Source: Acidobacteriota bacterium
GTDB lineage: Bacteria > Acidobacteriota > Vicinamibacteria > Vicinamibacterales > CAVVIG01
Reading direction: 5' to 3'
Length of the DNA stretch: 64,000 nt
Assembly: GCA_016195265.1 (NCBI GenBank)
Contig: JACPZW010000009.1
Coordinates: forward strand, 1,125 to 65,124
In this document: piece by piece, positions 2,918 through 64,000 of the stretch
How positions within the stretch are numbered: the first letter of the stretch is position 1
Layout of the letters: each line of letters opens with the position of its first letter
The notes under the pieces: model-generated
Databases searched by the model: none
What the model saw: only the letters and a program-made list of their open reading frames with translations
Told to the model about the DNA's origin: nothing
Made by a program: the position numbers and the translations under genes

Positions 2918-3100
2918 GGCGGGTCCTTTCGGACCCGCTGGTGCGCTCGGTACGTAGGGCGGGTCCTTTCGGACCCGCTGGTGCGCTCGGTGCGTAGGGC
3001 GGGTCCTGTGGACCCGCCTGATCCGCCGGGTCCGAAAGGACCCGGCCTACACAGGTCCAAAAAGGACCCGGCCTACATGGTCCAGAAGGACCCGGCCTGT
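2914..3100. repeat. REP/BIME-like cluster of about six GTAGG-headed GGGTCC...GGACCC hairpin units
   Basis: GTAGG heads sit at 2914, 2954 and 2994, with CCTAC at 3046-3050 and 3072-3076 and a degenerate CCTGT at 3096-3100. There is a 40-nt direct tandem repeat at 2910-2949/2950-2989. The cluster fills the whole intergenic gap. Confidence 0.85.
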
Positions 3101-9552: not shown

Positions 9553-9588
9553 TTGGTGGCTGGTGGCTGATGACTGGTGGCTGGTGTG
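9553..9588. repeat. GGTGGCT (CCAGCCA-family) heptad array, single arm
   Basis: The sequence ttggtggctggtggctgatgactggtggctggtgtg begins 7 nt after the stop codon of the upstream gene. Confidence 0.65.
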
Positions 9589-12595: not shown

Positions 12596-12644
12596 GGCGC
12601 GGAGCTTGCTCCGCCCCGAAGGGCCGATCAAGGTCGGCCCCTAC
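12592..12644. repeat. REP-doublet element of the second GTAGG family
   Basis: The element GTAGGGCGCGGAGCTTGCTCCGCCCCGAAGGGCCGATCAAGGTCGGCCCCTAC contains two hairpins. Its GTAG head overlaps the lysA TAG stop codon. A near-identical copy lies in reverse orientation at 43957-44005. Confidence 0.8.
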
Positions 12645-12660
12645 GACCATCACCCTCACT

Positions 12661-16434: not shown

Positions 16435-16497
16435 GTGGCTGGTGTCTGGTGGCTGGTGGCTGGGTCTTTCCAGCCCCTGGTCCCTAGCCTCCAGTCC
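16435..16497. repeat. Imperfect heptad hairpin between rplU and rpmA (GGTGGCT family)
   Basis: The arm gtggctggtgtctggtggctggtggctggg, the loop tcttt and the arm ccagcccctggtccctagcctccagtccc fill almost the whole intercistronic spacer. Confidence 0.65.
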
Positions 16498-19396: not shown

Positions 19397-19407
19397 GGTA
19401 AAAAGAA

Positions 19408-19442
19408 AGTGAAAACTGAGAAGTGAGAAGTGAAAAGTGAGA
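19408..19442. repeat. One-armed purine heptad array, (AGTGARA)x5
   Basis: The units agtgaaa actgaga agtgaga agtgaaa agtgaga lie between the dprA stop codon and the topA start. Confidence 0.7.
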
Positions 19443-19457
19443 AGGCGGAAGGAATAA

Positions 19458-21940: not shown

Positions 21941-21985
21941 CACGAAGACACGAAACCACGAAGAAGATGATTCGTGTTTTCGTGT
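21941..21985. repeat. CACGAAG-family hairpin after topA; probable terminator or mRNA end structure
   Basis: ACACGAAA-c-CACGAA (21948-21962) pairs with TTCGTG-t-TTTCGTGT (21971-21985). That is 14 bp with one mismatch and an 8-nt loop. Confidence 0.65.
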
Positions 21986-22001
21986 TGGGCCGGCCCGCAC
22001 A

Positions 22002-23444
22002 ATGATCACGATCGTTGGCGGCGGTCTCGCGGGTTCTGAAGCCGCGTGGCAGGCGGCCGAATGTGACGTTCCCGTCACGCTCCACGAGATGCGTCCGGTC
22101 CGGCCGACGGTGGTGCACAAGACGGACCGGCTCGCCGAGCTCGTCTGCAGCAACTCCTTCCGCGGCGACAAACTCGACAATGCCGTCGGCCTCCTCAAGG
22201 AGGAAATGCGACGCCTCGGGTCGCTCGTCATGCGCGCGGCGGAGGCGAGCCGCGTGCCCGCCGGCGCGGCGCTGGCCGTCGATCGCGAGCGGTTCGCCGA
22301 GACGATCACGCGCGCGATCACTAAACATCCGCGAATCACCGTGACGCGGCAGGAGGTCACGGCGATTCCGGATTCCAGCGAGCGCGCTCCGGTCATCATC
22401 GCGACAGGCCCGCTGACGTCCGACCCGCTTTCCGCGGCGATCGCCGTGCTCGTTGGCGAGCGGTATCTGTATTTCTACGACGCCATAAGCCCGATCGTCC
22501 TCGCCGAGACCATCGATCGATCGCGAGTGTTCCGCGCGTCGCGGTGGGGAAGAAGCCTTGGCCCGAAGAGCGACGTGCGGGGTGCGGAGTGCGACGTGCG
22601 GCGTACGGAGCGGGGCGACGTGGTCCCCGCGGAGCGCGTCCGGGGGGCGGGGGCCCCCGGATTGGACAATGATGGGCAGGGCGATTACCTGAATTGCCCG
22701 CTGACGCTCGACGAGTACGACCGCTTCTACAACGCGCTGGTGACGGCCGAGTCGGCGACCGTGCACGACTTCGACAAGGAGCGCTTCTTCGAAGGCTGCC
22801 TGCCGATCGAGGTGATGGCGCATCGCGGCCGCGACACGCTGCGCTTCGGTCCGATGAAGCCGGTCGGGCTCGTCGATCCGCGAACCGGGCGCGAACCGTA
22901 CGCGGCGGTGCAATTGCGCCAGGACAATCTCGCCGGCGACCATTTCAGCCTCGTCGGCTTTCAAACGCAGATCAAATGGGGCGAGCAGGCGCGCGTCCTG
23001 CGGCTGATTCCTGGTCTCGAGCAGGCGGAGTTCGTCCGCTTCGGCATGGTCCATCGCAACACCTATGTGAACGGGCCGTCGGTGCTCGACGAGACGTGGC
23101 AGGTGAGAGCGCGGCCGACGCTGTTCTTCGCAGGACAGATGTCCGGCGTCGAAGGGTACGTGGAGTCGGCGGCGTCCGGTTTAATCGCGGGGTTGAACGC
23201 CGCCGCCCTCGCGCGAGGCGAGGCGATCGCGCCTCCGCCCCGGACCACGGCCATCGGCGCGCTGGCGTATTACGTGGCGCACGCGAATCCGGCGCACTAC
23301 GAGCCGTCCAACATCACGTTCGGGATCATCCCGCCGCTGCCCCACGCGCCGCGCGGGAAGAAGCTGCGCAACCAGGCGCTCTCCGATCGCGCGCTCGCCG
23401 ACCTCGACGGCTGGATGCGATCGCGCACGCTGGTGCACCAGTGA
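22002..23444 (+). CDS. trmFO: Methylenetetrahydrofolate--tRNA-(uracil-5-)-methyltransferase
   Basis: Motifs include ITIVGGGLAGSEAAWQ, LVCSNSFR, YLNCPL and FAGQMSGVEGYVESAASG. Confidence 0.95.
   Translation: MITIVGGGLAGSEAAWQAAECDVPVTLHEMRPVRPTVVHKTDRLAELVCSNSFRGDKLDNAVGLLKEEMRRLGSLVMRAAEASRVPAGAALAVDRERFAETITRAITKHPRITVTRQEVTAIPDSSERAPVIIATGPLTSDPLSAAIAVLVGERYLYFYDAISPIVLAETIDRSRVFRASRWGRSLGPKSDVRGAECDVRRTERGDVVPAERVRGAGAPGLDNDGQGDYLNCPLTLDEYDRFYNALVTAESATVHDFDKERFFEGCLPIEVMAHRGRDTLRFGPMKPVGLVDPRTGREPYAAVQLRQDNLAGDHFSLVGFQTQIKWGEQARVLRLIPGLEQAEFVRFGMVHRNTYVNGPSVLDETWQVRARPTLFFAGQMSGVEGYVESAASGLIAGLNAAALARGEAIAPPPRTTAIGALAYYVAHANPAHYEPSNITFGIIPPLPHAPRGKKLRNQALSDRALADLDGWMRSRTLVHQ
22574..22615. 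repeat. GTGCGGN heptad array inside trmFO
   Basis: The units are cgtgcgg ggtgcgg agtgcga cgtgcgg cgtacgg agcgggg. The reverse complement of GGTGCGGAGTGCG recurs at 60455-60467. Confidence 0.7.
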
Positions 23445-24424
23445 CGCGCCATCTGAAGGCGTTCCTGCAGTTCCTCGCGCTCAATCGCAACGCGTCCGCG
23501 CACACGGTTCGCGCCTACGAGAGCGATCTCGGCCAGCTTTTCGCCTTCACGGCTGCCGCGGCGAAGACGTCCGTCGCGGACCTTCAGCCGGCGCAACTCG
23601 ATCGCCTGGCGCTGCGCGGCTTCCTCGGCGATCTGCACAAGCAGGGACAGTCACGCGCGTCGGCGGCGCGCAAGCTCGCGGCCGCCCGGACGTTTCTCAA
23701 GTACCTCCGCCGCGAAGGCGTCATCGAGGACGATCCCGGCGCGCTGGTCTCCACGCCGAAGCGGGACATCCGCATGCCGGCGCACCTGTCCGAAGGCGAG
23801 ATGTCGGCGCTGCTCGACGCGCCGGCCCTCGACAACGCGCTGGGCCGCCGCGATCGCGCGATCCTCGAGCTGTTCTACGCGTCGGGCCTGCGCGTCAGTG
23901 AGCTGGCCGGTCTCGACATCGATGACGTGAACCTGAGCGCGCGCATGGTCCGTGTGCTCGGCAAGGGCGGCAAGGAACGCATCGTCCCGTTCAACACGAG
24001 CGCGACGAAAGCGATCCGAGCCTACTTGAACGATCGCGAGCAGCTGGTGCGAGGCGGGGGTTCGAATCGTGGCGTCCGGCTTCAGCCGGACCGTCGTGGT
24101 CCGTCTAAAGGCGGACGCCACGCGGGAAACCGCGACCCGCTCTTCGTGAACTATCTTGGCCGGCGCTTGACGGTGCGGAGCATCGCGCGGCTGGTTCGGC
24201 GCTACGTCGCCGCGAGCAGCGCGCGGATGGGCATCAGTCCGCACGCCCTCCGGCATTCGTTCGCGACGCACCTGCTCCAGCGCGGCGCCGACCTGCGTGC
24301 GATCCAGGAGCTGCTTGGTCACGCGCGTCTCAGCACGACGCAGCGCTACACGCACGTGAACGCGGCGCAGCTGCTGGAGGTTTACAGGAAGTCGCACCCA
24401 CGGGCGAAGTCCACCAACGGCTAA
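23441..24424 (+). CDS. xerC: Tyrosine recombinase XerC
   Basis: N-terminal SAM-like core (FLALNRNASAHTVRAYESDL) and catalytic residues in ...RDRAILELFYASGLRVSEL...HALRHSFATHLL...LLGHARLSTTQRYTH. The GTG overlaps the trmFO stop codon (GTGA). Confidence 0.9.
   Translation: MTRHLKAFLQFLALNRNASAHTVRAYESDLGQLFAFTAAAAKTSVADLQPAQLDRLALRGFLGDLHKQGQSRASAARKLAAARTFLKYLRREGVIEDDPGALVSTPKRDIRMPAHLSEGEMSALLDAPALDNALGRRDRAILELFYASGLRVSELAGLDIDDVNLSARMVRVLGKGGKERIVPFNTSATKAIRAYLNDREQLVRGGGSNRGVRLQPDRRGPSKGGRHAGNRDPLFVNYLGRRLTVRSIARLVRRYVAASSARMGISPHALRHSFATHLLQRGADLRAIQELLGHARLSTTQRYTHVNAAQLLEVYRKSHPRAKSTNG
24068..24122. repeat. Nested palindromic (REPIN-like) element inside xerC
   Basis: CGTGGCGTCCG (24068-78) pairs with CGGACGCCACG (24112-22). 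Inner hairpins are GTCCGGC-ttca-GCCGGAC and CGGACC-gtcgt-GGTCCG. Confidence 0.7.
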
Positions 24425-24425
24425 T

Positions 24426-24458
24426 CATGAAGCCACGAAGAACACGAAGCGCACGAAG
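24426..24458. repeat. CACGAAG array forming the left arm only
   Basis: CATGAAG and three copies of CACGAAG sit at 24426, 24434, 24443 and 24452, directly after the xerC stop codon. Confidence 0.7.
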
Positions 24459-24534
24459 AAGATCAGAGAGTAGAGCCTCACGTTGATGCCGATCCTCGGA
24501 ATGGCGCCTTCCGCCTATCCTCGGACTTCGCGGC

Positions 24535-26039: not shown

Positions 26040-26966
26040 GGGCGCGGGGCGTTCACGGGCGCGGCAGGATCGTGTGGAGGTGTTCGAGGCCGCCCACGAC
26101 GGCACGCTGTTCCTCGATGAAGTGCGTGACGTATCGCCGGCGCTGCAGGTGCGGTTGTTGCGCGTGCTGCAGGCCCGCGAGGTGCGACGCGTGGGGGAAG
26201 TGCGCCTGCGGCCCGTTGATGTGCGCCTGATTGCGGCCACGCATCGCGATCTGGCGGCGGACGTGGCGCAGGGGCGCTTCCGCCAGGACATGTACTACCG
26301 GTTGCGCGTCGTGGATGGGCACGTGGCGCCGCTGAGGGAGCGCGTCGCGGACGTGGGTGTGTTGATGGATCAGTTGCTGGCGCGCGTGGCAAGCCGGATG
26401 GGGCGGCGGATTCGCGGGTACACGGACGCTGCGCGGCAATTTCTGATTGATTATGCGTGGCCGGAGAACGTCCGCGAGCTGGAACTCGCCGTCGAGCGCG
26501 CGTGTACCGTCTCCGAACAGCCGCTGATCGACGTCGGCGACCTGCCGGACGCGATTCAGCATCGGTTTGTCGTGGATCCGCCGGCGGGCAGTCCCGCCCG
26601 CTGCGCGAGATGGAGCGCGAGTACGTGCAGCTCATCGTCCGGCGCCATCGGGGCGACCGCCGTCGCGCCGCTGAAGAACTCCCGATCTCGCTGGCGACGC
26701 TAAAACGCAAATTGATCGAGGCTCGGCGGCCCGACACGTATCGCGGGCGGCCCTTGTCGACCGCGTTCGTCGCCCGCGGCCTGCCGCAGACGTCTATCAG
26801 GGACCTCGACGCGAACCTTCAGCGAATCGTCGCGGCGATCCGCGACCATGCGGCGGGGATCGGCACACGGATCGCCGCCCGTGCGGCGATTGACGCCGCG
26901 ATCGCGGGAGGTCTGACCGCGATCCAGCATCTCGATTCGAAGCTCCACACACACGAAGACCAGTAA
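26040..26966 (+). pseudogene. 5'-truncated, doubly frameshifted sigma-54-dependent activator remnant
   Basis: GAFTGA (26046-26063) is in frame 0. GTLFLDEV...VRLIAATHRDL...WPENVRELE is in frame 1. The HTH (ELPISLATLKRKL) returns to frame 0. The receiver domain and Walker A are absent. Confidence 0.8.
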
Positions 26967-27003
26967 AGGCTTCGTGTACCTTCGTGGCCTTCGTGTCTTC
27001 GTG
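26951..27003. repeat. CACGAAG-family right arm, one CACGAAG plus four CTTCGTG
   Basis: ACACGAAG (26951-58) pairs with CTTCGTGT (26970-77). Further CTTCGTG units start at 26980, 26989 and 26997. Confidence 0.7.
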
Positions 27004-28435: not shown

Positions 28436-28470
28436 CAGCCCTCAGCCCTCAGCCCTCAGCCCTCAGCCCT
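28436..28470. repeat. Perfect (CAGCCCT)x5 tandem heptad array
   Basis: Five exact units occupy most of the 47-nt gap between the kinase stop codon and the regulator start. Confidence 0.9.
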
Positions 28471-34790: not shown

Positions 34791-35399
34791 ATGACGTGGA
34801 CGGACGAAGAGCTCGTCGCGCGCTCGATACGCGGCGATGCCAACAGCTTCAACGAGCTCATCCTGCGATGGGAAGGGCCCATTTATGCCCTCGCGTACCG
34901 CACGATCGGTCGCGAAGAGGATGCGAGAGACGTGTGTCAGGAGACGTTCCTGCGCGCGTTCCGCGCCCTGCCGCGGTTCCGCGGCGAGGCAAAGTTCTCG
35001 TCGTGGCTGTATCGCATCGCGTTGAATCTGTGCCGCGACTGGATCCGGCGCGAGCGTCGCACGCCGGTCGTGCAGCCGCCCGAGGACGTCGACCTGATGG
35101 AGCTGGCGGCGGCGGCCGAGCCCTCGGAGTCGGTGGAGGATCTGGTCCAGCGCAAGGATCTCGCGCGGGCCATGGAGCGGGCGATGGCGCGGCTTCCGGA
35201 GGAGCAACGGACGGCGATCGTGCTGAAGGAATATCACGGGCTGACGTTCCAGGAAATCGCGGAGCTGGTCGGCTGCCCGTTGAGTACGGTAAAGACGCGC
35301 TTGTATCAGGGGCTGACGGTGCTGCGTCGCGAGCTGGCGAAGAATCCCAACGCGCCCAAGGCGCCGGTTTTCAACATCAGGGGAAACGACCGTGACTGA
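34791..35399 (+). CDS. ECF sigma factor
   Basis: Region 2 is DVCQETFLRAFRAL...FSSWLYRIALNLCRDW. Region 4 is LTFQEIAELVGCPLSTVKTRLYQG. Confidence 0.92.
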   Translation: MTWTDEELVARSIRGDANSFNELILRWEGPIYALAYRTIGREEDARDVCQETFLRAFRALPRFRGEAKFSSWLYRIALNLCRDWIRRERRTPVVQPPEDVDLMELAAAAEPSESVEDLVQRKDLARAMERAMARLPEEQRTAIVLKEYHGLTFQEIAELVGCPLSTVKTRLYQGLTVLRRELAKNPNAPKAPVFNIRGNDRD

Positions 35400-36156
35400 G
35401 ATGGTGTGCAGCTACGCGGGCGATCGCGACGACGCGATGATCGCCTATCTCTACGACGATGGCGACGCGGCGGTGCGCGCCGGATTCGAGGCGCACCTGG
35501 CCGCCTGCGCGCGGTGCCGCGAGGAAGTGGACGCGCTGCGCCGCGTGCGCAGTCAGCTCGCGCGCTGGGCTCCGCCTGAAGTGGACTTCATCACCAGCCA
35601 CCAGTCACCGGCCACCAGTCACCGTGCCTGGTGGCACGAGATTCCGGCGTGGGCGCAGGTGGCCGCCGCGCTGCTCGTCCTCGGCGTGTCGGCGGGCATC
35701 GCGAATCTCGACGTGCGGTACGACAGCAACGGCCTCAGCGTGCACACCGGCTGGGCGAAGCCCGCCGGTCCGGCGCCGCGCGCCGCGCAGACGGCCGACG
35801 CCGCGGCGCCGTGGCGCGCGGAGTTGACCGCGCTCGAGCAGCAGCTGCGCGGCGAAATCCGGGCCGTGCCCGCGAGCGCCCCGGCGCCGGTGAACGCGGC
35901 GGCGCCGCGTCCGGCGTCCAGCGACGCGGAGATGCTGCGCCGCGTGCGCGCGCTGCTCGACGAGAGCGAGAAGCGGCAGCAGCGCGAGCTCGCGCTGCGC
36001 GTCGGCGAAGTGCTGCGCGATTTCAACGCCGCGCGGCAGGCGGATTTGCGGACGATCGATCGCAACCTGAACGACGCGCAGAACCGCCTCGGCGTGGAAG
36101 TGCTCAGACAGCGTGAGAACCTGAACATGCTCATGCGTGTATCGCAAAGACAGTAG
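35392..36156 (+). CDS. Anti-sigma factor (zf-HC2 type, single transmembrane segment)
   Basis: HLAACARCREEVDAL is the zinc-finger motif, and the transmembrane segment is WAQVAAALLVLGVSAGIA. The gene is adjacent to, and overlaps, the ECF sigma gene. Confidence 0.8.
   Translation: MTEMVCSYAGDRDDAMIAYLYDDGDAAVRAGFEAHLAACARCREEVDALRRVRSQLARWAPPEVDFITSHQSPATSHRAWWHEIPAWAQVAAALLVLGVSAGIANLDVRYDSNGLSVHTGWAKPAGPAPRAAQTADAAAPWRAELTALEQQLRGEIRAVPASAPAPVNAAAPRPASSDAEMLRRVRALLDESEKRQQRELALRVGEVLRDFNAARQADLRTIDRNLNDAQNRLGVEVLRQRENLNMLMRVSQRQ
35592..35635. repeat. CCAGCCA-family element inside the anti-sigma coding sequence
   Basis: The sequence is caccagccaccagtcaccggccaccagtcacc. GCCACCAG (35611-18) pairs with CTGGTGGC (35628-35). 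It is translated as [14 protein letters not shown]. Confidence 0.7.
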
Positions 36157-41065: not shown

Positions 41066-42408
41066 TCTCACGACGTCCAACGCAGAACTCGCAGAACACG
41101 CGGTGCCATCTCTTCTCTGCGGGTTCAGCGGTTTCTGCGCTGTGCGTCGTCTTGCTCTGCGCGGCGTGCGGCAAGAAAGGGCCGCCGCTGCCGCCGCTCG
41201 TCAAGCTGCCGACGCCGCCCGCGGAATTCAGCGCCGAGCGTCGTGCCGGCACCGTCGAGTTTCGCTTCATCGTCCCCGCGGCCAACACCGACGGCACGCG
41301 CCCGGCGAACGTCACGCGCGTGGACGTCTACGCGCTGCCTCCGCCGGCCGAACCGGATCCCCTCGCCGCGCCGGGCCCGGTCGTTCCGCCGCCGCCGCTG
41401 ACCGTTGACGAGATTCTGAAGTCCGCGACGAAGGTCGCGAGCGTGGCCGTGAAGGCGCCGCGCGATCCGAACGCGACCATCGAGCCCGACGATCCCGATT
41501 CGGACCTGGATGCGCCCGAAGGCAGGGGCCTCGATCAGGGCGTGGCCGCGCGGGTATCGGACGATCTGGTCTCCGAACTCCTCGCGCCTGTCGCGGCGAA
41601 GCGCACGAAGGCTCCGAAGTTGACGGCGCGCTGGAGCCCGGACGAGGATGCGCCGCGGCCGCTGCTCTCGCCGCGGTGGATCACGCCCGCGCGCACCTAC
41701 GTGGCCGTCGGCGTCACGACGCGCGGCCGTCCCGGTCCGCTGTCGGCGCGCGTGGCGGTGCCACTGCTGGATCCGCCCGAGCCGCCCGATTCCGCGGAGT
41801 TCAGCTACGCCGAGACGGCGATCGCCGTGACGTGGACGCCGGTCTCGCCGCGCGCCGCGATCCAGGATCCGGTCGCGGAAGACGAGGACACGCTGCCGTC
41901 GCGGCCCGTCGGCGTGGAACTGCCGACGATCGCGTATAACGTCTACGACGCCGCGTCGGATCTCCGGTTGACGCCGGCGCCGATTCCCACCGCGGAATTT
42001 TCGGATGCGCGCATCGCCTGGAACGAGGAGCGCTGCTACGCCGTGCGCGCCGTCGAGACGCTGAACGGCCTGTCGATCGAGAGCGAGGCCGCGTTCACTT
42101 CGTGTGAGACGCTCGTCGATACGTTCCCGCCCAAGGCGCCAAGAGGTCTAGACGCCGTGCCGGGCGAGGGCTGGATCAGTCTCATCTGGGAGCCGAACAC
42201 CGAAAAGGATCTCGCGGGCTACATCGTGTTGCGCGGGTCCGCGCCGGGCGACGAGCTGGAGCCAATCACGCCCGCGCCGATTCAGGAGACGTTCTTCAAG
42301 GACGCGGTCGCCGCCGGCGCGACCTACGTGTACGCCGTCAAGGCCGTCGATGCGGCCGGCAACGCGAGCGAGCTCTCGAATCGCAGACAGGAATCCGCGC
42401 GGGATTAA
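41062..42408 (+). CDS. Lipoprotein with fibronectin type III-like domains
   Basis: The lipobox is VVLLCAAC|GKK. The protein has Pro-rich linkers and a C-terminal FN3-like region ([19 protein letters not shown]...[14 protein letters not shown]). The GTG overlaps the hslU stop codon. Confidence 0.7.
41081..41146. repeat. CGCAGAA/TTCTGCG inverted array across the 5' end of the lipoprotein gene
   Basis: CGCAGAA is at 41081 and 41090. The inverted units are ttctctgcg at 41113, TTCTGCG at 41133 and tgtgcg at 41141. Confidence 0.55.
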
Positions 42409-42426: not shown

Positions 42427-43200
42427 ATGGATCGCGTCTACCGCATCAGCCATCAGGGCGCCGTGCAGCATGCCGTCGAGCGCGAGGGCGCGCTGCACCG
42501 GATCGGCGGCGACGTGTTCGGCGGTTACACGCTGAGCGAGGCCATTCCCGGCGGCCTGAACGCGGCCGGGCTGCGCGTGCTCGCGCCCGTCACTCCGTCG
42601 AAAATCGTCTGCGTCGGGCTCAACTACAAGGATCACGCCGCTGAGAGCGGCGTGACGCTGCCGGACGAGCCGCTGCTGTTCTTCAAACCGCCGACCGCGG
42701 TCATCGGGCCGGGGGATCGGATCCGGTTGCCGCCCGGCGTCGGACGCGTCGATCACGAAGCGGAGCTGGCGCTCGTCATCGGACGCCGCGCGCACCGCGT
42801 GCCGCGCGCCCGCGCGTGGGAGTACGTGTGCGGCCTGACGTGCCTCAACGACGTCACCGCGCGCGAGATGCAGCACAAGGAGTCGCAGTTCACGCGCTGC
42901 AAGGGATTCGACACGTTCTCGCCCGTCGGGCCGTGCATCGTCACCGGACTCAACGGCGAGCCGCGCAACGTCGAGGCGTGGGTCAACGGCGGGCGACGCC
43001 AGGCGTCGAACACGCGGCATCTGATTTTCCCGATCGACTACCTCATCGAGTACATCTCGTTCGTGATGACGCTCGAGCCCGGCGACATCGTCTCGACGGG
43101 CACGCCCGAAGGCGTTGGACCTATCACCGCCGGCGATACGGTAACGGTGAGCGTGGAAGGCGTCGGCGAGTTGAGCAATCCGGTGATGAATGAACAATGA
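42427..43200 (+). CDS. Fumarylacetoacetate hydrolase-family protein
   Basis: Motifs include KIVCVGLNYKDHA, FFKPPTAVIGPGD, HEAELALVIG and GDIVSTGTPEGVG. Confidence 0.9.
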   Translation: MDRVYRISHQGAVQHAVEREGALHRIGGDVFGGYTLSEAIPGGLNAAGLRVLAPVTPSKIVCVGLNYKDHAAESGVTLPDEPLLFFKPPTAVIGPGDRIRLPPGVGRVDHEAELALVIGRRAHRVPRARAWEYVCGLTCLNDVTAREMQHKESQFTRCKGFDTFSPVGPCIVTGLNGEPRNVEAWVNGGRRQASNTRHLIFPIDYLIEYISFVMTLEPGDIVSTGTPEGVGPITAGDTVTVSVEGVGELSNPVMNEQ

Positions 43201-43293
43201 GAGTTCAGATTTCAGAGTTCAGATTTCAGATTGATTGCAGATCTTGTGACTTGCCCCTCAATCTGAAATCTGAACTCTGAATTCTGAAATCTC
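43201..43293. repeat. Long heptad hairpin, (TTCAGAK)n versus (MTCTGAA)n
   Basis: 43211-43231 is the exact complement of 43261-43281 (21 bp). Pairing extends to about 30 bp with mismatches, around a 29-nt loop. The element starts at the first base after the upstream stop codon. Confidence 0.9.
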
Positions 43294-43306
43294 GGGAGTA
43301 TTTCTC

Positions 43307-43960
43307 ATGAAGCTCTTCATCGACTCCGGCAACATCAAGGACATCGAGACGCTGACGGCGCTGGGCATCATCGACGGCGTGACGACCAATCCGTCGCTGC
43401 TCGCCAAGGAGCCAGGCGACTATCGCGACAACCTCAAGCGCATTTGCCAGATCGTCAAAGGCCCCGTCAGCGGCGAAGTGACGGCGACCGACTTCGCCGG
43501 CATGCTGCAGCAGGGCCACGACGTCGCGAAGATCGATCCGCACATGGTCGTGAAGGTCCCGCTGACGCGCGAGGGCATCAAGACGTGCACGGCGCTCTCG
43601 GGCGAGGGCATTCGCGTCAATGTGACGCTCTGCTTCTCGGCCGCACAGGCGCTGCTCGCGGCGAAGGCGGGCGCGGCCTACATCAGCCCCTTCGTCGGCC
43701 GGCTCGACGACATCGCCACCAACGGCATGGCCCTGATTCGCGAGATCGTGGACATCTACAACAACTACGACTTCAAGACCGAGATCCTGGTCGCCAGCTG
43801 CCGTCACCCGATTCACGTCGTCGAAGCGGCGCGCATGGGCGCCGACGTCGCGACGTGTCCGCCCGCGGTGATCGATCAGATGTTCAATCACCCGCTGACG
43901 AACATCGGGCTGGAAAAATTCCTGAAGGACTGGGAGAAATCGCAGGCTGTCAAAGCGTAG
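43307..43960 (+). CDS. fsa: Fructose-6-phosphate aldolase / type 3B transaldolase
   Basis: Motifs include [22 protein letters not shown] (the Schiff-base Lys region) and [10 protein letters not shown]. Confidence 0.93.
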
Positions 43961-44005
43961 GGGCCGCCTTGGTCGGCCCGAGGGCGGAGCAAGCTCCGCC
44001 CCTAC
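43957..44005. repeat. REP-doublet element, reverse copy of 12592-12644
   Basis: The element is GTAGGGGCCGCCTTGGTCGGCCCGAGGGCGGAGCAAGCTCCGCCCCTAC. Its GTAG head overlaps the fsa TAG stop codon. Confidence 0.8.
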
Positions 44006-44008
44006 GAG

Positions 44009-44060
44009 CCAGCCACCCATCACTAGCCACCCGTCACCAGCCACCAGTCACCAGCCACCA
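44009..44060. repeat. CCAGCCA-family array running up to the next start codon
   Basis: The sequence is ccagccacccatcactagccacccgtcaccagccaccagtcaccagccacca. Confidence 0.7.
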
Positions 44061-44061
44061 C

Positions 44062-45603
44062 ATGGATCCTCTCAAGACTCTCTCAGACCTCGAACGGCGC
44101 GCCGAACTCGGCGGCGGACAGGATCGGCTCGACCGGCAGCGTGAAGGCGGCAAGCTGACCGCGCGCGAGCGCATCGAGCTGCTCTTCGACCCCGGCACGT
44201 TCGAGGAAGTGGACAAGCTCGTCACGCACCGGTGCATCGACTTCGGGATGGATCAACAGATCGTGCCGGGCGACGGCGTCGTCGCCGGCCATGGGTTCAT
44301 CGACGGCCGCCAGGTGTTCGCGTTCGCGCAGGACTTCACCGTCTTCGGCGGATCGCTGTCCGAGACCAACGCGGCGAAGATTGTGAAGATCATGGATCTC
44401 GCGATGCGGCTCGGGGCGCCGCTGGTCGGGCTGAACGATTCAGGCGGCGCGCGCATTCAGGAAGGCGTGCTCTCGCTCGGCGGCTACGCGGACATCTTTC
44501 TCCGCAACACGCTGGCGTCGGGCGTCATCCCGCAGATCTCCGCGATCATGGGGCCGTGCGCCGGGGGAGCGGTGTACTCGCCCGCGATCACCGACTTCAC
44601 GATCATGGTCCGCGACACGAGCTACATGTTCGTGACCGGGCCCGACGTACTAAAGACGGTAACCCATGAAAATGTAAACAAAGACGAGCTCGGTGGCGCC
44701 ATGACGCACAACGAGAAAAGCGGCGTGGCGCACTTCGCCGTGGACGACGACCGCGAGTGCCTGGCGCTGCTGCGCGATCTGCTGTCGTTCATGCCGAGCA
44801 ACAACCTCGACGACCCGCCGCGCGCGTCCACGAGCGACCCGCCGGATCGCGAAGACGAGGCGCTCGACCGGATCGTGCCGCCGTCGCCGAATCAGCCGTA
44901 CGACATGCTCGACGTGATCCACGCCGTCGTGGACGAGGGCTACTTCCTGGAAGTCCACCGGCACTTTGCGAAGAACATCCTCGTCGGGTTCGCCCGGCTC
45001 GACGGCCGGCCGGTCGGCATCGTCGCGAATCAGCCGGCCGTGCTCGCCGGTACGCTGGACATCGACGCGGCCGTGAAGGGCGCCCGCTTCGTGCGCTTCT
45101 GCGACTGTTTCAACATCCCGCTCGTCACGTTCGAGGACGTGCCAGGTTTCCTCCCCGGGACGCAACAGGAGTTCGGCGGCATCATCAGGCACGGCGCAAA
45201 GTTGCTCTTCGCATTCGCCGAAGCGACGGTGCCCAAAGTGACGGTCATCACGCGGAAGGCGTACGGCGGCGCGTACTGCGTGATGTCGAGCAAGCACATC
45301 CGGACCGATTTCAACTACGCCTGGCCGACCGCCGAAATCGCGGTCATGGGCCCGGAGGGCGCCGTAAATATTCTGTATAAGCGCGAGCTCGAAGCGGCGG
45401 CGGACCCGGCACAGGCCCGCGCCCAGAAGATCGAGGAGTTCCGCGAGAAATTCGCCAACCCCTACATCGCGGCCGGCCGCGGCTTTGTCGATGAGGTCAT
45501 TCATCCGCGCGAGACGCGGCGCAAGCTGATCACCGCGCTCAAGAACCTCGAGAACAAGCGCGACAAGAACCCGCCGAAGAAGCACGGCAACATTCCGCTC
45601 TAA
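44062..45603 (+). CDS. pccB: Acyl-CoA carboxylase carboxyltransferase subunit (propionyl-CoA carboxylase beta-like)
   Basis: Motifs include [47 protein letters not shown] and [13 protein letters not shown]. The start is ATG 44062, not track position 43444. Confidence 0.9.
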
Positions 45604-49011: not shown

Positions 49012-49015
49012 ATGA

Positions 49016-49073
49016 GTAGGGCGGGTCCTTTGGGACCCGCCTGATCGGGCCGGGTCCGAAAGGACCCGGCCTA
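49016..49073. repeat. REPIN: two inverted GTAGG-headed REP units
   Basis: GTAGGGCGGGTCCTTTGGGACCCGCC-tgatcgg-GCCGGGTCCGAAAGGACCCGGCCTAC. Confidence 0.88.
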
Positions 49074-49082
49074 CAACATCCT

Positions 49083-55800: not shown

Positions 55801-56875
55801 GCGCGGCGAAGGCATGCAGCTGCGCTGGCCCGAGGGCATTCGGTCCGTCGTGGACGCGGATCTGTCGGTCCGCGGCAGCGTGAAGTCGCCGACGCTCGGC
55901 GGCACCGTGAACGTGAAGAGCGCCGTCTGGAACCGCCGCATCGACACGCCCGGCAACATCTTCGACTTTGCCTCGCGGTCCGACGCGGCCGGCGGCGGCG
56001 GTGGCGGCGCCCGCGGCCCCGCCCGTGAAGTCGACGCGCCCGCGTCGCCCCTGCGATTCGACATCCAGATCCTCGTGCCGTCCACGCTGAGAGTGGAGAA
56101 CAACCTCGTCCGCATGACCGCGAACGCGGACCTCACGCTGCGCGGCACCTACGATCGCCCCGTGATCCTCGGCCGCGCGGATCTCGAACGCGGCGAGGCC
56201 ACGTTCGAGGGACGGCGGTATCGCCTGACGCGCGGCTCGATCGACTTCACCAACCCCGGCAAGATCGAGCCCTTCTTCGACATCGAGGCCGAGACCAACG
56301 TGCGCGTCGCCGGCATCGGCGCCACCGGCAGCACGTCCGGGCAGACCTACCGCGTGACGGTCACCGCGAGCGGCACGAGCGACCGGATGCGATGGACGGC
56401 CACGTCCGATCCGGCGCTCCCGGCCTCCGACGTGCTGGCGCTGCTGTTCAGCGACGTGCGGCGCTCTCCCGATGTCGAGCTGCGGACGCTCCAGAATCCG
56501 AACCAGACCGAGACCGACATCCTGACCGCACGCGCAACGCAGGCGCTGGCCGCGCCGCTCTCGTCCGAAGTGGGCAAGGTCGTCGAGCAGGCGTTCGGCG
56601 TGGACACGTTCGCGCTGACGCCGTCGCTGGTCGATCCCTACGGGTCGTTCAGCAGCAGCCAGGCGTCCCGCCTGAACCCGACAGCGAGGCTGACGATCGG
56701 CAAGCGCATTTCGGATCGCGTGTTCGTGACGTTCTCGCGCAGCCTCGGCACCACGATCAACGATCAGATTCTCATTCTCGAAATCGAGCAGAGCGACACG
56801 TCGTCGTGGATTATCTCGCGGAACGAAGACTCGCAGACCTACGCGATCGAGCTGCGCAAGAGGTACGTGTTCTGA
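52805..56875 (+). CDS. tamB: Translocation and assembly module protein TamB (AsmA-like, DUF490 C-terminus)
   Basis: 1356 aa with an N-terminal transmembrane anchor, a long beta-rich repetitive body and a C-terminal ...TIGKRISDRVFVTFSRSL... block. It is adjacent to a BamA-family gene. Confidence 0.82.
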   Translation: MNLITRLRRHPVPRAAKYFVASVAALLAAALVASLTVDLGPAARSAAERGGSDYLERPIHIGSLGIRLLTGRFVVENLTIDGFHPGDRPFFTAKRIDIGLDWLPAFRLKPDFVISTVSMTDWQMLVEKWESGHNFPKFVHEDSQPKKPRPFTVTLRDLHAYRGQFAFEDHEAPWSIVCPNLDITIGNVPNYHGRAAFSGGIVRIQDFVPMWTNMKKADFVIDGPHIRLSEIDFDTDGAKTVARGEVDFSNWPNQFYNVQSRVNFPRMRQLFFKDETWDLTGDGDFTGTFRLTKGKGHDLSGRFTSALAGVNAYRFPSLYGSLHWTPQAFDVSNAGSKFSGGDAKFSYSIKPLGRRDTRPVHHFDSTIADLDLQQFTDFQQMPGLRFAGAASLHNVLEWPAGRFAEHRGDGHLVVTPQPGQMPRGPMTASLAAARQADPDHARHEWGPFAPVPLPAHLPVSGELTYRYSPDEVAIDAGRFATEKTHVTFDGTTAWGDRSRLPFHVTSSDWQESDQVLVGIIQDFGASAHVVPFGGRGEFDGVMTGAFKRPRIEGTFSGEDLRGFDTLWGGLFSLGYPRDDGGEEMNARIRVARHDVDSLRHAFGIDDYPVSGLLSGDFHLTGEYERPVGFGSMTIDEGVAYGEPFERATTTLRFDGMGARLDTVSIAKSGGTITGAAFVGWDSTYSFNGRGRHLPVERLALFASTSVPLTGIAEFEAEGSGTFDVPRFDVTFRVNDLFYAEEGIGQVTGKLARRGKELNGDVNAASPRLTVTGGGRITLSPQSEADLTFRFHDTSLDPYVRLFVPTLSPFTTAVASGSIRAAGDLANIDRLVVDGAVDALDLRLFDYAVKNAAPVRLRLEHRQVTLDELRLVGEDTRLRLSGAVSLADERIALRAAGDANLGVLQGFFRNVRASGHATVTAAINGPLRQPQLSGSATITDGRVRHFSLPNALDAVNGTVQFDSGGIRLDGVSATLGRGRVQFGGRIGMDGYQIGDVDVTVRGEGMQLRWPEGIRSVVDADLSVRGSVKSPTLGGTVNVKSAVWNRRIDTPGNIFDFASRSDAAGGGGGGARGPAREVDAPASPLRFDIQILVPSTLRVENNLVRMTANADLTLRGTYDRPVILGRADLERGEATFEGRRYRLTRGSIDFTNPGKIEPFFDIEAETNVRVAGIGATGSTSGQTYRVTVTASGTSDRMRWTATSDPALPASDVLALLFSDVRRSPDVELRTLQNPNQTETDILTARATQALAAPLSSEVGKVVEQAFGVDTFALTPSLVDPYGSFSSSQASRLNPTARLTIGKRISDRVFVTFSRSLGTTINDQILILEIEQSDTSSWIISRNEDSQTYAIELRKRYVF

Positions 56876-60323: not shown

Positions 60324-60329
60324 ACAGTG

Positions 60330-60470
60330 CGGGGTGCTACGTGCTCCGCACGAGGCCCTTCGCACCTCGCACTTCGGCACCAGGCACAGCACCACGCACC
60401 TCGGCACCAGGCACAGAGCACCACGCACCTCGGCACCAGGCACGGCACCCAGCACCTCCGCACTCCGCAC
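60330..60470. repeat. GTGC-periodic repeat block containing an approximately 29-nt tandem repeat x3
   Basis: The 29-nt units are about 60361-60389, 60390-60417 and 60418-60446 (cacgcacctcggcaccaggcaca...). They are flanked by gtgcggggtgc (60328-60338, just overlapping the listed start) and ccgcactccgcaccc. Confidence 0.75.
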
Positions 60471-60473
60471 CCG

Positions 60474-61154: not shown

Positions 61155-61160
61155 AATGCG

Positions 61161-61306
61161 GTGACTGGTGGCTGGTGGCTGGTGGCTGGTGGACGGCGAA
61201 GAGGGCTGCGGGCTGGAGGGCTGAGGGCCCTGGGAGTCCGAGTCGTTGAGCACGGCGCAAGCGTAACCGATTGTTGTCAGCCCTCAGCCCTCCGCTCTCA
61301 GCCCTT
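61161..61306. repeat. Composite repeat: a GGTGGCT array plus inverted AGGGCTG/CAGCCCT arms
   Basis: The first part is gtgactggtggctggtggctggtggctggtgg (61161-92). Then gagggctgcgggctggagggctgagggccctggg (61201-34) faces cagccctcagccctccgctctcagccctt (61278-306). Confidence 0.8.
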
Positions 61307-61322
61307 GAGTGATAATTACCGC

Positions 61323-62717
<1,395 letters not shown>

Positions 62718-62795
62718 GTGGCTGGTGACTGGTGACTGGTGGCTGGAAATACCGCCATTGAGCCCTCAGCCACTAGCCACCAGCCACTAGCCACC
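62718..62795. repeat. GGTGGCT/CCAGCCA-family hairpin between the regulator stop codon and the kinase start codon
   Basis: The arm ggtggctggtgactggtgactggtggctg (62718-46) faces cagccactagccaccagccactagccacc (62767-95), with about 4 mismatches in 29. Confidence 0.78.
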
Positions 62796-64000
62796 ATGCG
62801 TCTGGGCATCAAAGGCAAACAAGTCCTCGGCGTCACGTCGATTGTCGGCGTCGTCGTCGTCGTGCTGAGCGTGCTGCAGCTGGCCGAGCTGGCGAGCGTC
62901 AGCCTCGAGGAGAGCCGGGCACGCGCCGAGCTGCTGGCCAACGCGGTCTACCAGCGCGCGCGTGAAGTCGTTTCGGTTGGCGGCGATCCGTACGATGCGC
63001 TCCGCCGCGATCCGGGGCTGCGGTCGATCCTCGAGTCGAGCGCGTACTCCAAGCACGTCACCTTCGCCGCCATTATCGACGTCCGCGGCGTCGCGGTCGC
63101 GCACGCCGACGCCGCGCTCGAAGGCCGCGCGCTGCCGGGCGGCGAGGACATCGCGCCGCTACTCGGCCGTTCAGCCGTCGCGCAGCTCGCCGCGGTCTAC
63201 CGCGGTCCCGGCCGCACGCTGGAGTGGCGCCAGCCGCTGCTGCTCGGCGACACCGAGTTCGGATCCATCCGCGTCGGCATCTCGACGCTGCTGATTCGCG
63301 CCGATCTCGACACGTCGCTGCGCCCCGCGCTCTGGACCGCGCTCGCCGCGCTCGCCATCGCCGTGATTGGCGCGATGCTGCTCGCGCAGATCCTGCTCCG
63401 GCCGATTCACGTGATCGCGAGCGGGCTGACCCGCCTCGGCCGCGGCGAGTTCGGCGTCCGCCTGGATCTCGATCCGCGCGACGAGTTCGGCGAGATCGGC
63501 GCGCACTTCAACGCGGTCAGCGATCAGCTTCTGGCCGATCGGTCCGGCGCCGCGCCGCTCGATCCCGCGAGCCAGGAGCAGGCCGCCGTCCGCTACGCGC
63601 GCAAGCTGACCGCGCTCGGCCGGCTGTCGGCCGGCGTCGCGCACGAGGTGAAGAATCCGCTCAATGCGATGACGATTCATCTCGAGCTCCTGCGCCAGCA
63701 GCTCGCGGCGGCGGGCGACGCCGGCGCGCCGGCGCGGGTGCACGCGGACGTCATCGCCAACGAGATCCGCCGGCTCGACGAGGTCGTGCAGAGCTTTCTG
63801 AAGTTCGCGCGGCCCGAGGATCTGAAGCTGGAACGCGTCAGGCTGGCGCCGCTGCTCGACGAAGTGCGGACCGTCGTCCAGCCCGAGGCCGAGCGCCGCG
63901 GCGTCACGATCGCCATCGACGGCCGCGCCGCGCCCGACGTCACCGGCGACCCGACGCTCCTGCGGCAGGCGTTCCTCAATCTGGCGCTGAATGCCTGTCA
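62796..64000 (+). CDS. Membrane sensor histidine kinase (two transmembrane segments, HAMP, HisKA); 3' end outside the window; absent from the ORF track
   Basis: My own translation from ATG 62796 is open to the window end. It reads MRLGIKGKQVLGVTSIVGVVVVVLSVL..., then a HAMP domain (LRPIHVIASGLTRLGRGEFGVRLD) and an H-box (GVAHEVKNPLNAM). Confidence 0.85.
   Translation, partial: MRLGIKGKQVLGVTSIVGVVVVVLSVLQLAELASVSLEESRARAELLANAVYQRAREVVSVGGDPYDALRRDPGLRSILESSAYSKHVTFAAIIDVRGVAVAHADAALEGRALPGGEDIAPLLGRSAVAQLAAVYRGPGRTLEWRQPLLLGDTEFGSIRVGISTLLIRADLDTSLRPALWTALAALAIAVIGAMLLAQILLRPIHVIASGLTRLGRGEFGVRLDLDPRDEFGEIGAHFNAVSDQLLADRSGAAPLDPASQEQAAVRYARKLTALGRLSAGVAHEVKNPLNAMTIHLELLRQQLAAAGDAGAPARVHADVIANEIRRLDEVVQSFLKFARPEDLKLERVRLAPLLDEVRTVVQPEAERRGVTIAIDGRAAPDVTGDPTLLRQAFLNLALNAC

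Follow-up and report, generated by a model that had tools for sequence, protein, structure and literature searches.

Inverted pairs of heptanucleotide repeat arrays between co-directional genes in Acidobacteriota

How does a long, almost perfect hairpin with tandemly repetitive arms come to lie between two adjacent genes, and what does it do there? The question is raised by positions 43199–43293 of a 64-kb stretch of DNA from a soil bacterium of the Vicinamibacterales (Acidobacteriota), referred to here as the window, within which all coordinates are given unless another locus is named. The hairpin fills the space between a gene of the FAA-hydrolase family (FAH) and a transaldolase gene (tal). 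Our analysis shows that it is an inverted pair of heptanucleotide simple sequence repeat (SSR) arrays and that it belongs to a large, non-randomly placed population of such arrays in Acidobacteriota. The reading we favour, with moderate confidence, is that the arrays were made by slippage, were inverted by template switching and are tolerated in operons as intercistronic stems that are not terminators.

A repeat hairpin flush with stop codon and ribosome-binding site

The hairpin and its flanking genes are arranged as follows; repeat arrays were located by Tandem Repeats Finder (TRF) and genes by a codon model.

42427–43200, + strand: FAA-hydrolase family gene, upstream (Pfam PF01557, E=1.6e-64; codon-model gene call), with its stop codon TGA at 43198–43200
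43199–43234, + strand: 5′ arm of the hairpin, about 4.7 heptamer copies (AGAGTTC/AGATTTC, that is TTCAGAK), beginning within the stop codon (TRF, fold)
43235–43257, + strand: hairpin loop of 23 nt, its columns unalignable among orthologous hairpins
43258–43293, + strand: 3′ arm of the hairpin, (AATCTGA)n, flush with the Shine-Dalgarno (SD) sequence (inverted-repeat search, fold)
43294–43309, + strand: SD sequence GGGAG (43294–43298), 8-nt spacer and transaldolase ATG (43307), with (A/G)GGAG and ATG conserved in orthologues
43307–43960, + strand: transaldolase/Fsa family gene, downstream (Pfam PF00923, E=2.8e-60)

The two arms, 36 nt each and 23 nt apart, are 94% complementary. Each has a TRF period of 7 with 4.7 copies, and the alternation of G and T at one position creates a perfect 14-nt super-period (AGAGTTC AGATTTC, 100% match). 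They thus consist of head-to-tail units in the 5–11-nt range that characterises long SSRs and the short tandemly repeated repetitive (STRR) sequences, and they form a close pair of same-unit arrays, one on each strand and the G-rich one leading, as in the inverted pairs of Xanthomonas. The unit TTCAGAT has no G-run and does not resemble the GGGNATC-type units that are capable of forming G-quadruplexes. The predicted RNA fold contains 34 bp with two 1×1 mismatches, 24 of the pairs being uninterrupted, and its minimum free energy of -57.5 kcal/mol compares with -25.6 ± 3.3 in 200 dinucleotide shuffles (z = -9.7), none of which folds as well. In silico, this uninterrupted helix exceeds the 20 bp or so of double-stranded RNA that would be required at the least of an RNase III-processed SSR hairpin of the hmw type. 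The tandem-unit arms described in the original prediction, an earlier reading of the sequence alone, are therefore real, and its figures of 21 perfect base pairs, about 30 overall and a 29-nt loop become 24, 34 and 23 nt. Its remark that the element starts right after a stop codon is essentially right: pairing begins at 43199, the second base of the FAA-hydrolase TGA, so that two stop-codon bases lie inside the stem, and at the other end position 43293 adjoins the GGGAG of the transaldolase gene. The stem is AU-rich, the hairpin is followed by GGGAGTATTTCTC, and there is no T-run downstream.

The window was compared with 80 loci (L001–L080), 1.45 Mb in total, which were searched with TRF and annotated with self-trained codon-model gene calls. 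The loci with close transaldolase relatives are almost all from metagenome-assembled genomes of Vicinamibacterales (Acidobacteriota subdivision 6), the best match being L052 with 96% amino acid identity. Four species (L013, L016, L022 and L009; 82–88% protein identity) carry a hairpin of the same unit in the FAH–tal spacer. Eight further species have the start-proximal (AATCTGA)n array alone, even where the upstream gene is a different one (L024), and the 3′ arm is the more widely conserved of the two. Upstream of tal, other species carry other units (AATCAGC, ACAAAGG, AGCAAGA), and several species that have no array keep before the tal start the sequence ATTTCAGGAG, which contains the unit; in the register ATTTCAG, the unit matches this conserved ribosome-binding context of the array-less relatives. 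In L052, the closest relative, the focal array is absent and the FAA-hydrolase open reading frame (ORF) reads on to overlap the transaldolase start (ATGA). No target-site duplication is found at the boundary of the focal hairpin between the window and L052.

Two further junctions behave in the same manner. Between tal and the carboxyltransferase gene that follows it, stop abuts start (TAA-GTG) in many species, and other species have hairpins of TGGCTGA, GGAGGCT or CAGCCCC units, in which the 5′ arm directly follows the stop codon and the last unit includes the start codon ATG (CAGCCATG). At the junction of a response regulator and a histidine kinase gene, which in the window is occupied by a hairpin at 62717, the genes of distant relatives overlap (ATGCGACGTAA) and closer relatives have short, plain spacers. 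In each of six independent spacers, the stop codon and the beginning of the 5′ arm are offset by -1 to +3 nt, and the 3′ arm either reaches the start codon or stops 12–14 nt short of it, a distance equal to an SD sequence plus its spacing. This flush geometry, together with the overlapping or abutting genes of relatives, indicates that the hairpins are insertions into tight, presumably translationally coupled junctions; a stem runs flush from stop codon to SD or start because its array sits in such a junction.

Arrays at orthologous spacers differ between species in copy number and in unit variants, as expected of slippage in long SSRs. One L052 hairpin orthologous to window 41081/50634 has a 5′ arm that was independently homogenised to AAGTGGGT (4.4 copies). 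At orthologous spacers, the arrays are vertically inherited, with units that drift, lengths that change in unit steps and occasional complete loss.

A non-random population of period-7 arrays

Within the window, 14 period-7 arrays are found, compared with a mean of 0.9 and a maximum of 3 in 20 block shuffles. Among the intergenic arrays with at least 2.8 copies in the Vicinamibacterales loci (925 kb), 65 have period 7, compared with 3 of period 6, 12 of period 8, 15 of period 9 and 2 of period 10. Arrays called coding have mainly periods 6, 9 and 12 (27, 48 and 30). Another 42 period-7 arrays were called coding, most of them through gene-call errors at gene ends: the gene calls often ran ORFs across arrays, and the spacer statistics, which use corrected starts, are approximate. 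Repeats of this kind mislead gene callers about start sites, and several ORFs here were extended across arrays in this way. The loci of Pyrinomonadaceae/Blastocatellia likewise peak at period 7, with 15 arrays in their 42 kb of spacer, and the non-acidobacterial loci (185 kb) contain one intergenic period-7 array. As described for long SSRs and STRRs, the arrays go beyond the expectation from composition and are mainly non-coding, with exceptions in tolerant coding linkers.

The pairing of arrays is systematic. An inverted partner lies within 150 nt of 54 of the 162 Vicinamibacterales arrays and 19 of the 29 in Pyrinomonadaceae; the same-orientation controls give 3 and 0. A scan of the window and L001–L080 for inverted tandem arrays, of the kind that the original prediction had called for, yields 48 non-redundant repeat hairpins, neither rare nor randomly placed. 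Co-directional spacers, of which 48 of 328 are occupied, contain 1.33 arrays per kb, about four times the 0.34 of divergent spacers; convergent ones have 0.58. The co-directional enrichment and divergent depletion match those of Xanthomonas. The arrays survive mainly between co-directional genes, often where the genes of relatives overlap or abut.

Copy number has its mode at 4–5 and a median of 4.4, and this holds also for units without a G-run (106 of 116 arrays). A GGG or CCC run occurs in the unit of 11 of the 116 period-7 arrays, and G-quadruplex formation can be rejected as the explanation for most units. Of the 46 hairpins in which G and C are unequal, 38 have their G-rich arm on the 5′ side and their C-rich arm on the 3′ side (8 opposite; p about 1e-5); after orthologues are collapsed, the ratio is roughly 30 to 7. 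This polarity is independent of gene direction, because an inverted repeat reads alike on both strands; for the same reason a transcription-related bias was rejected as its cause.

The 98 Vicinamibacterales arrays comprise 49 distinct canonical heptamers. One consensus for all units can therefore be rejected, and the absence of a single master copy, which the original prediction had deduced, is borne out, since copies of the same unit share neither loops nor flanks. Some groups recur, with a GGCTG core (GGCTGGT, GGCTGAG, GGCTGAT, GGCTGGA, GGCTGGG) or with AATC/GATT. The idea of a different unit at each site did not hold up: GGTGGCT/CCAGCCA occurs at seven window sites (1297, 9554, 16435, 35592, 44009, 61160, 62717), CAGCCCT at two (28436, 61201/61277) and CACGAAG at three neighbouring ones (21941, 24434, 26970). 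Reuse is seen in other loci as well, with examples at three spacers each in L014/L019 (AATCTGA), L047 (AGAAGTC) and L060 (AATTTGT).

The other arrays of the window are listed below, with z-scores of the RNA fold against shuffles for hairpins and TRF as the source of one-armed arrays.

21941–21986, + strand: repeat hairpin, unit CACGAAG(A), period about 8, between two + strand genes (z = -5.3)
41070–41151, + strand: repeat hairpin, unit CGCAGAAC(N), period 9, filling the spacer after an HslU-like gene (z = -5.3); conserved in L052 and L003
50634–50727, + strand: repeat hairpin, unit TGGGTAAT, period 8 (z = -5.6); orthologues in L052 and L028
59764–59849, + strand: repeat hairpin, unit AATGCAGG, period 8, between BamA and a Skp/SurA_N-like gene (z = -9.6)
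61201–61306, + strand: repeat hairpin, unit AGGGCTG / CAGCCCT, in a divergent spacer (z = -3.9); preceded by a one-armed (GGTGGCT)×4.7 array at 61160–61192
62717–62795, + strand: repeat hairpin, unit GGTGRCT / AGCCACY (z = -6.4); exactly occupies the spacer between the final stop-codon base (TAG) of a sigma-54 response regulator gene and the ATG of the histidine kinase gene, with no SD sequence
26950–27003, - strand: short hairpin with a (CACGAAG)n array, 3′ of a - strand regulator gene (z = -4.4; absent from the earlier list); inverted relative to the array at 24434–24460
16435–16497, - strand: (GGTGGCT)×4 facing a degenerate CCAGYCC arm, weak hairpin (z = -1.6)
60326–60473, + strand: long degenerate (GCACCNN)n array with a short GTGCGGG counterpart, no significant hairpin (z = -1.0)
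9554–9586, + strand: one-armed (TGGTGGC)×4.7, filling a 39-nt stop-to-start spacer; the start GTG at 9586 was read from the sequence, the product having a signal-peptide-like N-terminus
19407–19451, + strand: one-armed (AAGTGAG)×5.4, filling a 61-nt spacer
24434–24460, + strand: one-armed CACGAAGAA ×3 after an integrase-like gene
28436–28470, - strand: (AGGGCTG)×5 on the sense strand, perfect (100% matches), filling the 47-nt junction of a histidine kinase and a response regulator gene
44009–44060, + strand: one-armed (CCAGCCA/CCCGTCA)×7, flush with the carboxyltransferase start, with REP-like palindromes before it
35592–35623, + strand: heptamer array (CACCAGC)×4.6, translated in frame in the linker of an anti-sigma factor

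Seven of the nine hairpin sites that had been proposed from the sequence, the focal one included, fold better than shuffles; the two that do not, 16435 and 60330, are effectively one-armed or degenerate. All five proposed one-armed arrays were recovered by TRF (9554, 19407, 24434, 28436, 44009).

Some properties of individual arrays deserve mention. The (GGTGGCT)n arrays at 9554–9586, 16435–16463, 61160–61192 and 62717–62746 contain the E. coli Chi octamer GCTGGTGG every 7 nt, probably by coincidence. Several genes behind C-rich arrays (CCAGCCACC-ATG, CAGCCATCAGCC-ATG) have no recognisable SD sequence (window 44052–44064 and 62784–62798; L010 10730–10745), and their initiation may proceed by re-initiation or an SD-independent mechanism. 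G-quadruplex-capable arrays, such as (AGGGCTG)×5 and (GGGGCTG)×5, occur at window 28436–28470 (sense on the - strand), L002 5143–5180 and L027 15259–15434; in L027, a 22-copy CCAGTCG/CCAGTCC array adjoins a GGGGCTG arm.

Origin and role of the arrays

Local generation by slippage followed by inversion, one of the origins that had been suggested beforehand, is the best-supported one: the unit matches the ATTTCAGGAG seed, a start codon can lie within the last unit, and arrays are gained and lost between close relatives. In the reading we favour, a 7-nt seed from the local flanking sequence would be amplified by replication slippage, for which seven nucleotides is the favoured length in many bacteria, and the array would then be copied inversely by fold-back or template switching to give a G-rich arm, a loop and a C-rich arm. 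The polarity could originate in the nascent strand, as G/T-rich strands would be able to self-pair by G·T wobble and C/A-rich strands would not. Slippage and arm-to-arm templating would keep the copies alike, which may be why the unit at an orthologous spacer stays the same from species to species; the number of copies, their variants and the loop would drift, and the whole palindrome could vanish. Survival would be confined chiefly to operon junctions, since a 7-nt insertion or deletion would be lethal in coding sequence and disruptive in promoters. There, a self-folding insert would leave stop and start adjacent in space: transcribed as part of the operon mRNA, a helix of 24–36 bp would set the upstream stop codon beside the downstream ribosome-binding site and be far less harmful to translational coupling than an unstructured insert.

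Several tests speak to the level at which the process acts. Strand-specific selection on RNA would be expected to favour G·U over A·C mismatches on the sense strand. Among 29 co-directional hairpins, sense and antisense strands fold better in 14 cases each, with 70 and 66 G·U pairs, respectively (Wilcoxon p=0.51). Among five orthologous focal hairpins no covariation was seen (term +2.56), their arm sequence being conserved. Heptamer arrays also occur in frame in coding sequence. The array at 35592–35623 lies in an anti-sigma factor gene (35392–36156, adjoining an extracytoplasmic function (ECF) sigma factor gene at 34791–35399), in the stretch that joins the zinc-finger domain to the transmembrane helix; the orthologues in L052, L029, L033, L014, L019, L026, L010, L003, L004 and L024 have different in-frame heptamer arrays (CAGTCGN, AATCCGC, CCAGCCA) that encode variable Ser/Gln-rich linkers. 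As these in-frame arrays differ among orthologues, heptamer slippage appears to be a general mutational property of these genomes that becomes visible wherever it is tolerated, and symmetric folding, absent covariation and in-frame coding arrays jointly point to a DNA-level process that is not RNA-strand-specific. Another repeat in coding sequence, of period 7/21 (GTGCGGA; 21-nt period at 90%), lies at 22570–22610 between two Pfam-matched stretches of a GidA/TrmFO-like gene (22002–23444) and may be a further in-frame insertion.

As to its role, the focal hairpin probably serves as a stem between cistrons through which the operon transcript is modulated or processed, and as neither a sequence-specific signal nor a terminator. 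Processing or modulation is expected over termination because there is no T-tract, the stem is AU-rich, the loop is long and the neighbours are operon partners; by their Pfam matches, the genes flanking hairpins include FAH–tal–carboxyltransferase, bamA–skp and response regulator–kinase. A long perfect helix is the canonical type of RNase III substrate, and a role as processing site is plausible on physical grounds.

Several observations sit uneasily with a purely neutral origin by slippage. Arm conservation, within-genome reuse of units and polarity are not fully explained by it, and the last two go beyond simple local slippage. Identical canonical units at distinct sites of one genome form 13 pairs where 2.7 are expected (2000 permutations, p<0.0005), and 7 where 1.5 are expected if the window is left out (p=0.001); the test covers neighbourhoods of 20–64 kb. 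The G-rich-first polarity, at 38 of 46, is strong. Arm identity between species is 0.88–0.92, compared with 0.66–0.81 at third codon positions of the adjacent gene and a loop that cannot be aligned, and such conservation could reflect purifying selection and not concerted evolution. As the arms are internally repetitive, however, arm identity effectively measures the conservation of a 7-nt consensus, and it fits purifying selection and concerted evolution alike; the comparison of orthologous spacers that the original prediction had suggested as a test confirmed that units persist across species without telling these two apart. The folding-asymmetry test has modest power (n=29) and depends on gene calls made in the analysis, and no strain variant of the focal spacer turned up when metagenome contigs were searched for exact matches.

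A serious rival, one that we regard as possible if rather unlikely, is therefore a selected intercistronic RNA element that couples translation, serves as an RNase III site, or stabilises transcripts in the manner of the repetitive extragenic palindromic (REP) sequences of E. coli operons, or combines these. If coupling were its purpose, a ribosome terminating at the stop codon would melt the base of the stem and expose the SD sequence or start codon on the other arm, and array length would tune the relative expression of the neighbouring genes. The stems of the six independent spacers, which set in at an offset of -1 to +3 nt to the stop codon and reach as far as start or SD, would suit such a device. 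So would the AUG that is paired inside the stem in L010, L011 and L016, and that of the 62717 hairpin, which lacks an SD sequence and abuts a 29-bp stem. Selection would likewise account for the enrichment in co-directional spacers and for arms more conserved than synonymous sites, and experiments on the hmw hairpin of Haemophilus provide a precedent for RNase III acting on such a stem (PMC12721329). The flush geometry is, however, equally expected of any insert that arises in a spacer of 0–20 nt, and neither a G·U excess on the sense strand nor covariation was seen. One-armed arrays fill equivalent junctions (9554, 19407, 28436), hairpins occur in convergent and divergent spacers too, and L052, the closest relative, does without the focal hairpin.

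A bolder version would combine selection with unit choice: a lineage-wide Acidobacteriota system of intercistronic hairpins, acting by re-initiation across a bridge from stop codon to ribosome-binding site and/or by RNase III processing, in which genome-specific unit dialects are installed or homogenised by a trans-acting factor or by templated copying. We consider it doubtful, though if it were true, the unit-installing process would also explain the heptamer preference and the G-rich-first polarity shared with Xanthomonas.

The trans-acting component can also be considered by itself, with the arrays as multivalent sites for a genome-specific protein or RNA that recognises the heptamer, or with units installed by templated copying in trans. 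This would explain the excess of shared units within genomes, and why species that differ in the unit at one spacer reuse their own unit elsewhere (L014/L019, L047, L060); in other taxa, a single unit dominates each genome (GGGAATC in Xanthomonas, TAACTGA in Beggiatoaceae). The window alone, however, has about eight unit families, either strand of a unit can be the sense one (9554 versus 44009), and no candidate factor was identified. The sharing may in part come from similar local seeds or from copying of neighbouring arrays within 20–64 kb, and on balance we judge a trans-acting factor improbable.

Mobile elements fare worse still, and it is scarcely credible that miniature elements with repetitive arms, resembling REPs or MITEs (miniature transposable elements with inverted repeats) and with active families of their own in each genome, produced the hairpins. 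Presence/absence polymorphism with clean boundaries, the same unit at several loci of one genome and true REP-like palindromes in the window would fit such a model. Against it, copies with the same unit share no loop, flank, terminal motif or target-site duplication, orthologous copies are vertically inherited with drifting units, copy number changes in unit steps, and arrays blend into the local sequence including the start codon. A MITE was rejected on the missing target-site duplication at the window/L052 boundary and the unrelated loops. A member of the families of REPs, bacterial interspersed mosaic elements (BIMEs) and REP doublets forming hairpins (REPINs), which are dispersed palindromes with a GTAG head, was rejected because same-unit hairpins differ in loop and flank and units vary by locus. 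An Rfam scan of the whole window gave no match at the gathering threshold.

Intrinsic terminators or attenuators without a U-tract in a high-GC genome, also put forward in the original prediction, are very improbable: the stems are very stable, lie just after stop codons and could represent another terminator type, given that canonical terminator-like sites are not above chance in 39–51 kb (6, below the 8.1 expected from shuffles), yet they stand inside operons between functionally linked genes that overlap or abut in relatives (ATGA, TAA-GTG, ATGCGACGTAA), one-armed arrays occupy the same positions, and the inverted repeats are strand-symmetric and found in divergent spacers as well. A conventional Rho-independent terminator was rejected for the focal site, whose 34-bp AU-rich stem with a 23-nt loop and no T-run differs from a short GC-rich stem with a small loop and a U-tract, and which, judging from overlapping or abutting genes in relatives and the functional pairing of its neighbours, does not seem to lie at the end of a transcription unit. 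A promoter and terminator consensus scan of 39–51 kb found nothing at the arrays.

Known heptamer systems and other features of the window

The architecture had been thought to match no described element class. It is not a new class; the same kind is known from Xanthomonas and cyanobacteria, as heptanucleotide long SSRs, as inverted pairs in Xanthomonas (PMC4692102) and, in one case, as an RNase III hairpin in Haemophilus (PMC12721329). What differs here is that there are many units per genome, mostly not G-quadruplex-capable, that stems sit flush against stop and start codons where relatives have tight junctions, and that the phylum is another one. A full-text search of the literature library used found no report of such arrays for Acidobacteria.

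The closest counterpart are the GGGAATC repeats of Xanthomonas, which are 89–93% intergenic, with 65–70% in co-directional, 16% in convergent and 7–8% in divergent spacers (Rehm et al. 2015, PMC4692102). They lie on average 28 nt from the upstream ORF, mostly have four units and form 70–75 convergent inverted heptamer pairs per genome; their position is conserved and their length varies between species, and no function was found (PMC4692102). The acidobacterial arrays resemble them as tandem heptamers of a high-GC genome that are mostly intergenic, prefer co-directional and avoid divergent spacers, and lie near the end of the upstream ORF. Both also have a mode of about four units, opposite-strand pairs with the G-rich array first, conserved positions of variable length and housekeeping neighbours. 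Xanthomonas, however, has essentially one unit, which is G-quadruplex-capable, in contrast to the dozens of units here and to the focal TTCAGAT; a flush stop-to-start geometry is unreported there, and the phylum is different.

Heptamers are the dominant class of long SSR according to the summary of Mrazek et al. 2007 given in PMC4679880. With long SSRs and STRRs, the arrays share units of 5–11 nt with heptamers dominant, lengths greater than chance, intergenic location and a scattered occurrence across phyla; polymerase slippage is the proposed cause of long SSRs, and cyanobacterial STRRs comprise several unit types per genome, as here. Those descriptions concern direct arrays, and they do not include systematic hairpins, polarity or the persistence of units at orthologous spacers. 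STRR heptamers of cyanobacteria were reportedly described by Mazel et al. in 1990 (this and Mrazek et al. as cited in PMC4679880 and PMC4692102).

In the 5′-untranslated region of Haemophilus influenzae hmw1A, RNase III cleaves an (ATCTTTC)n hairpin, which affects both expression and the dynamics of the repeat (PMC12721329). There, too, a transcribed heptamer SSR forms an arm of a long hairpin, and the double-stranded RNA would be physically similar. The right arm of the hmw1A hairpin, unlike those described here, is a non-repeat G-rich region, and the gene encodes a phase-variable adhesin with at least 10 repeats; the acidobacterial hairpins have arrays of about 4–5 units in both arms and stand between housekeeping cistrons. 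The direct TAACTGA repeats that occur in marine Beggiatoaceae, cyanobacteria and Bacteroidetes (MacGregor 2015, PMC4679880) are 2–6-copy arrays a few nucleotides before start codons of housekeeping genes, often without a canonical SD sequence, comparable to the one-armed arrays of the window at 9554, 28436, 44009 and 62768. They have one unit per genome, unlike the arrays described here, and nearly no inverted copies (1/170).

REP/BIME (REPIN) elements and the intercistronic RNase III hairpins of phage T7 early mRNA are stable stem-loops in polycistronic transcripts that affect decay, processing or the translation of upstream genes, and the hairpins described here are predicted to be similar structures in such transcripts. 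In REPs, a single palindrome with a GTAG head is dispersed in copies that REP-associated tyrosine transposases (RAYTs) mobilise. The heptamer hairpins, in contrast, share no sequence with the REP-like elements of the window (2910–3100, 12596, 43961, 49012) or with one another.

Heptamer arrays have reportedly been noticed in bacteria since 1990, and their over-representation is said to have been shown in 2007. Beyond one Haemophilus locus, we know of no case in which a reason for the 7-nt period, or any function, has been established. The many units found here, compared with one in Xanthomonas, allow effects of architecture to be separated from effects of sequence, and an explanation by G-quadruplexes is weakened because the 4–5-copy mode holds for units that are unable to form them. 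Dozens of species allow one and the same spacer to be compared with a hairpin, with a one-armed array or with none, the stems are placed in junctions that are presumably translationally coupled, and G-rich-first polarity together with the reuse of units within genomes constrains any mechanism.

The REP-like palindromes belong to two families with a GTAG(G) head, arranged as inverted doublets similar to REPINs or BIMEs (2910–3100, 12596–12660, 43961–44008, 49012–49082). In family one, GTAGGGCGGGTCC-TTTC-GGACCCGC is paired with CCGGGTCC-GAAA-GGACCCGGCCTAC; in family two, GGGGCGGAGC-AA-GCTCCGCC occurs with GGGCCGACC..GGTCGGCCC. Both are distinct from the heptamer hairpins, and in L007 a REP-like palindrome lies within the loop of one.

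A tRNA and tmRNA scan of the window gave one dubious match and none else: an ARAGORN call of tRNA-Arg(GCG) at 56482–56567 on the - strand, unrelated to the arrays. It lies inside the coding region of a large gene ending at 56875, where Rfam has no tRNA, and is probably a false positive. Finally, the inverted CACGAAG arrays at 24434–24460 and 26970–27003 flank a 2.5-kb segment of lower GC content (0.61), which adjoins a XerC/D-type integrase gene (23441–24424) and contains two toxin–antitoxin pairs (DUF433 with DUF5615/PIN-like; a ParE toxin with a small upstream ORF) and pseudogene fragments of a sigma-54 activator; this segment may have been inserted into what was once the loop of a repeat hairpin.

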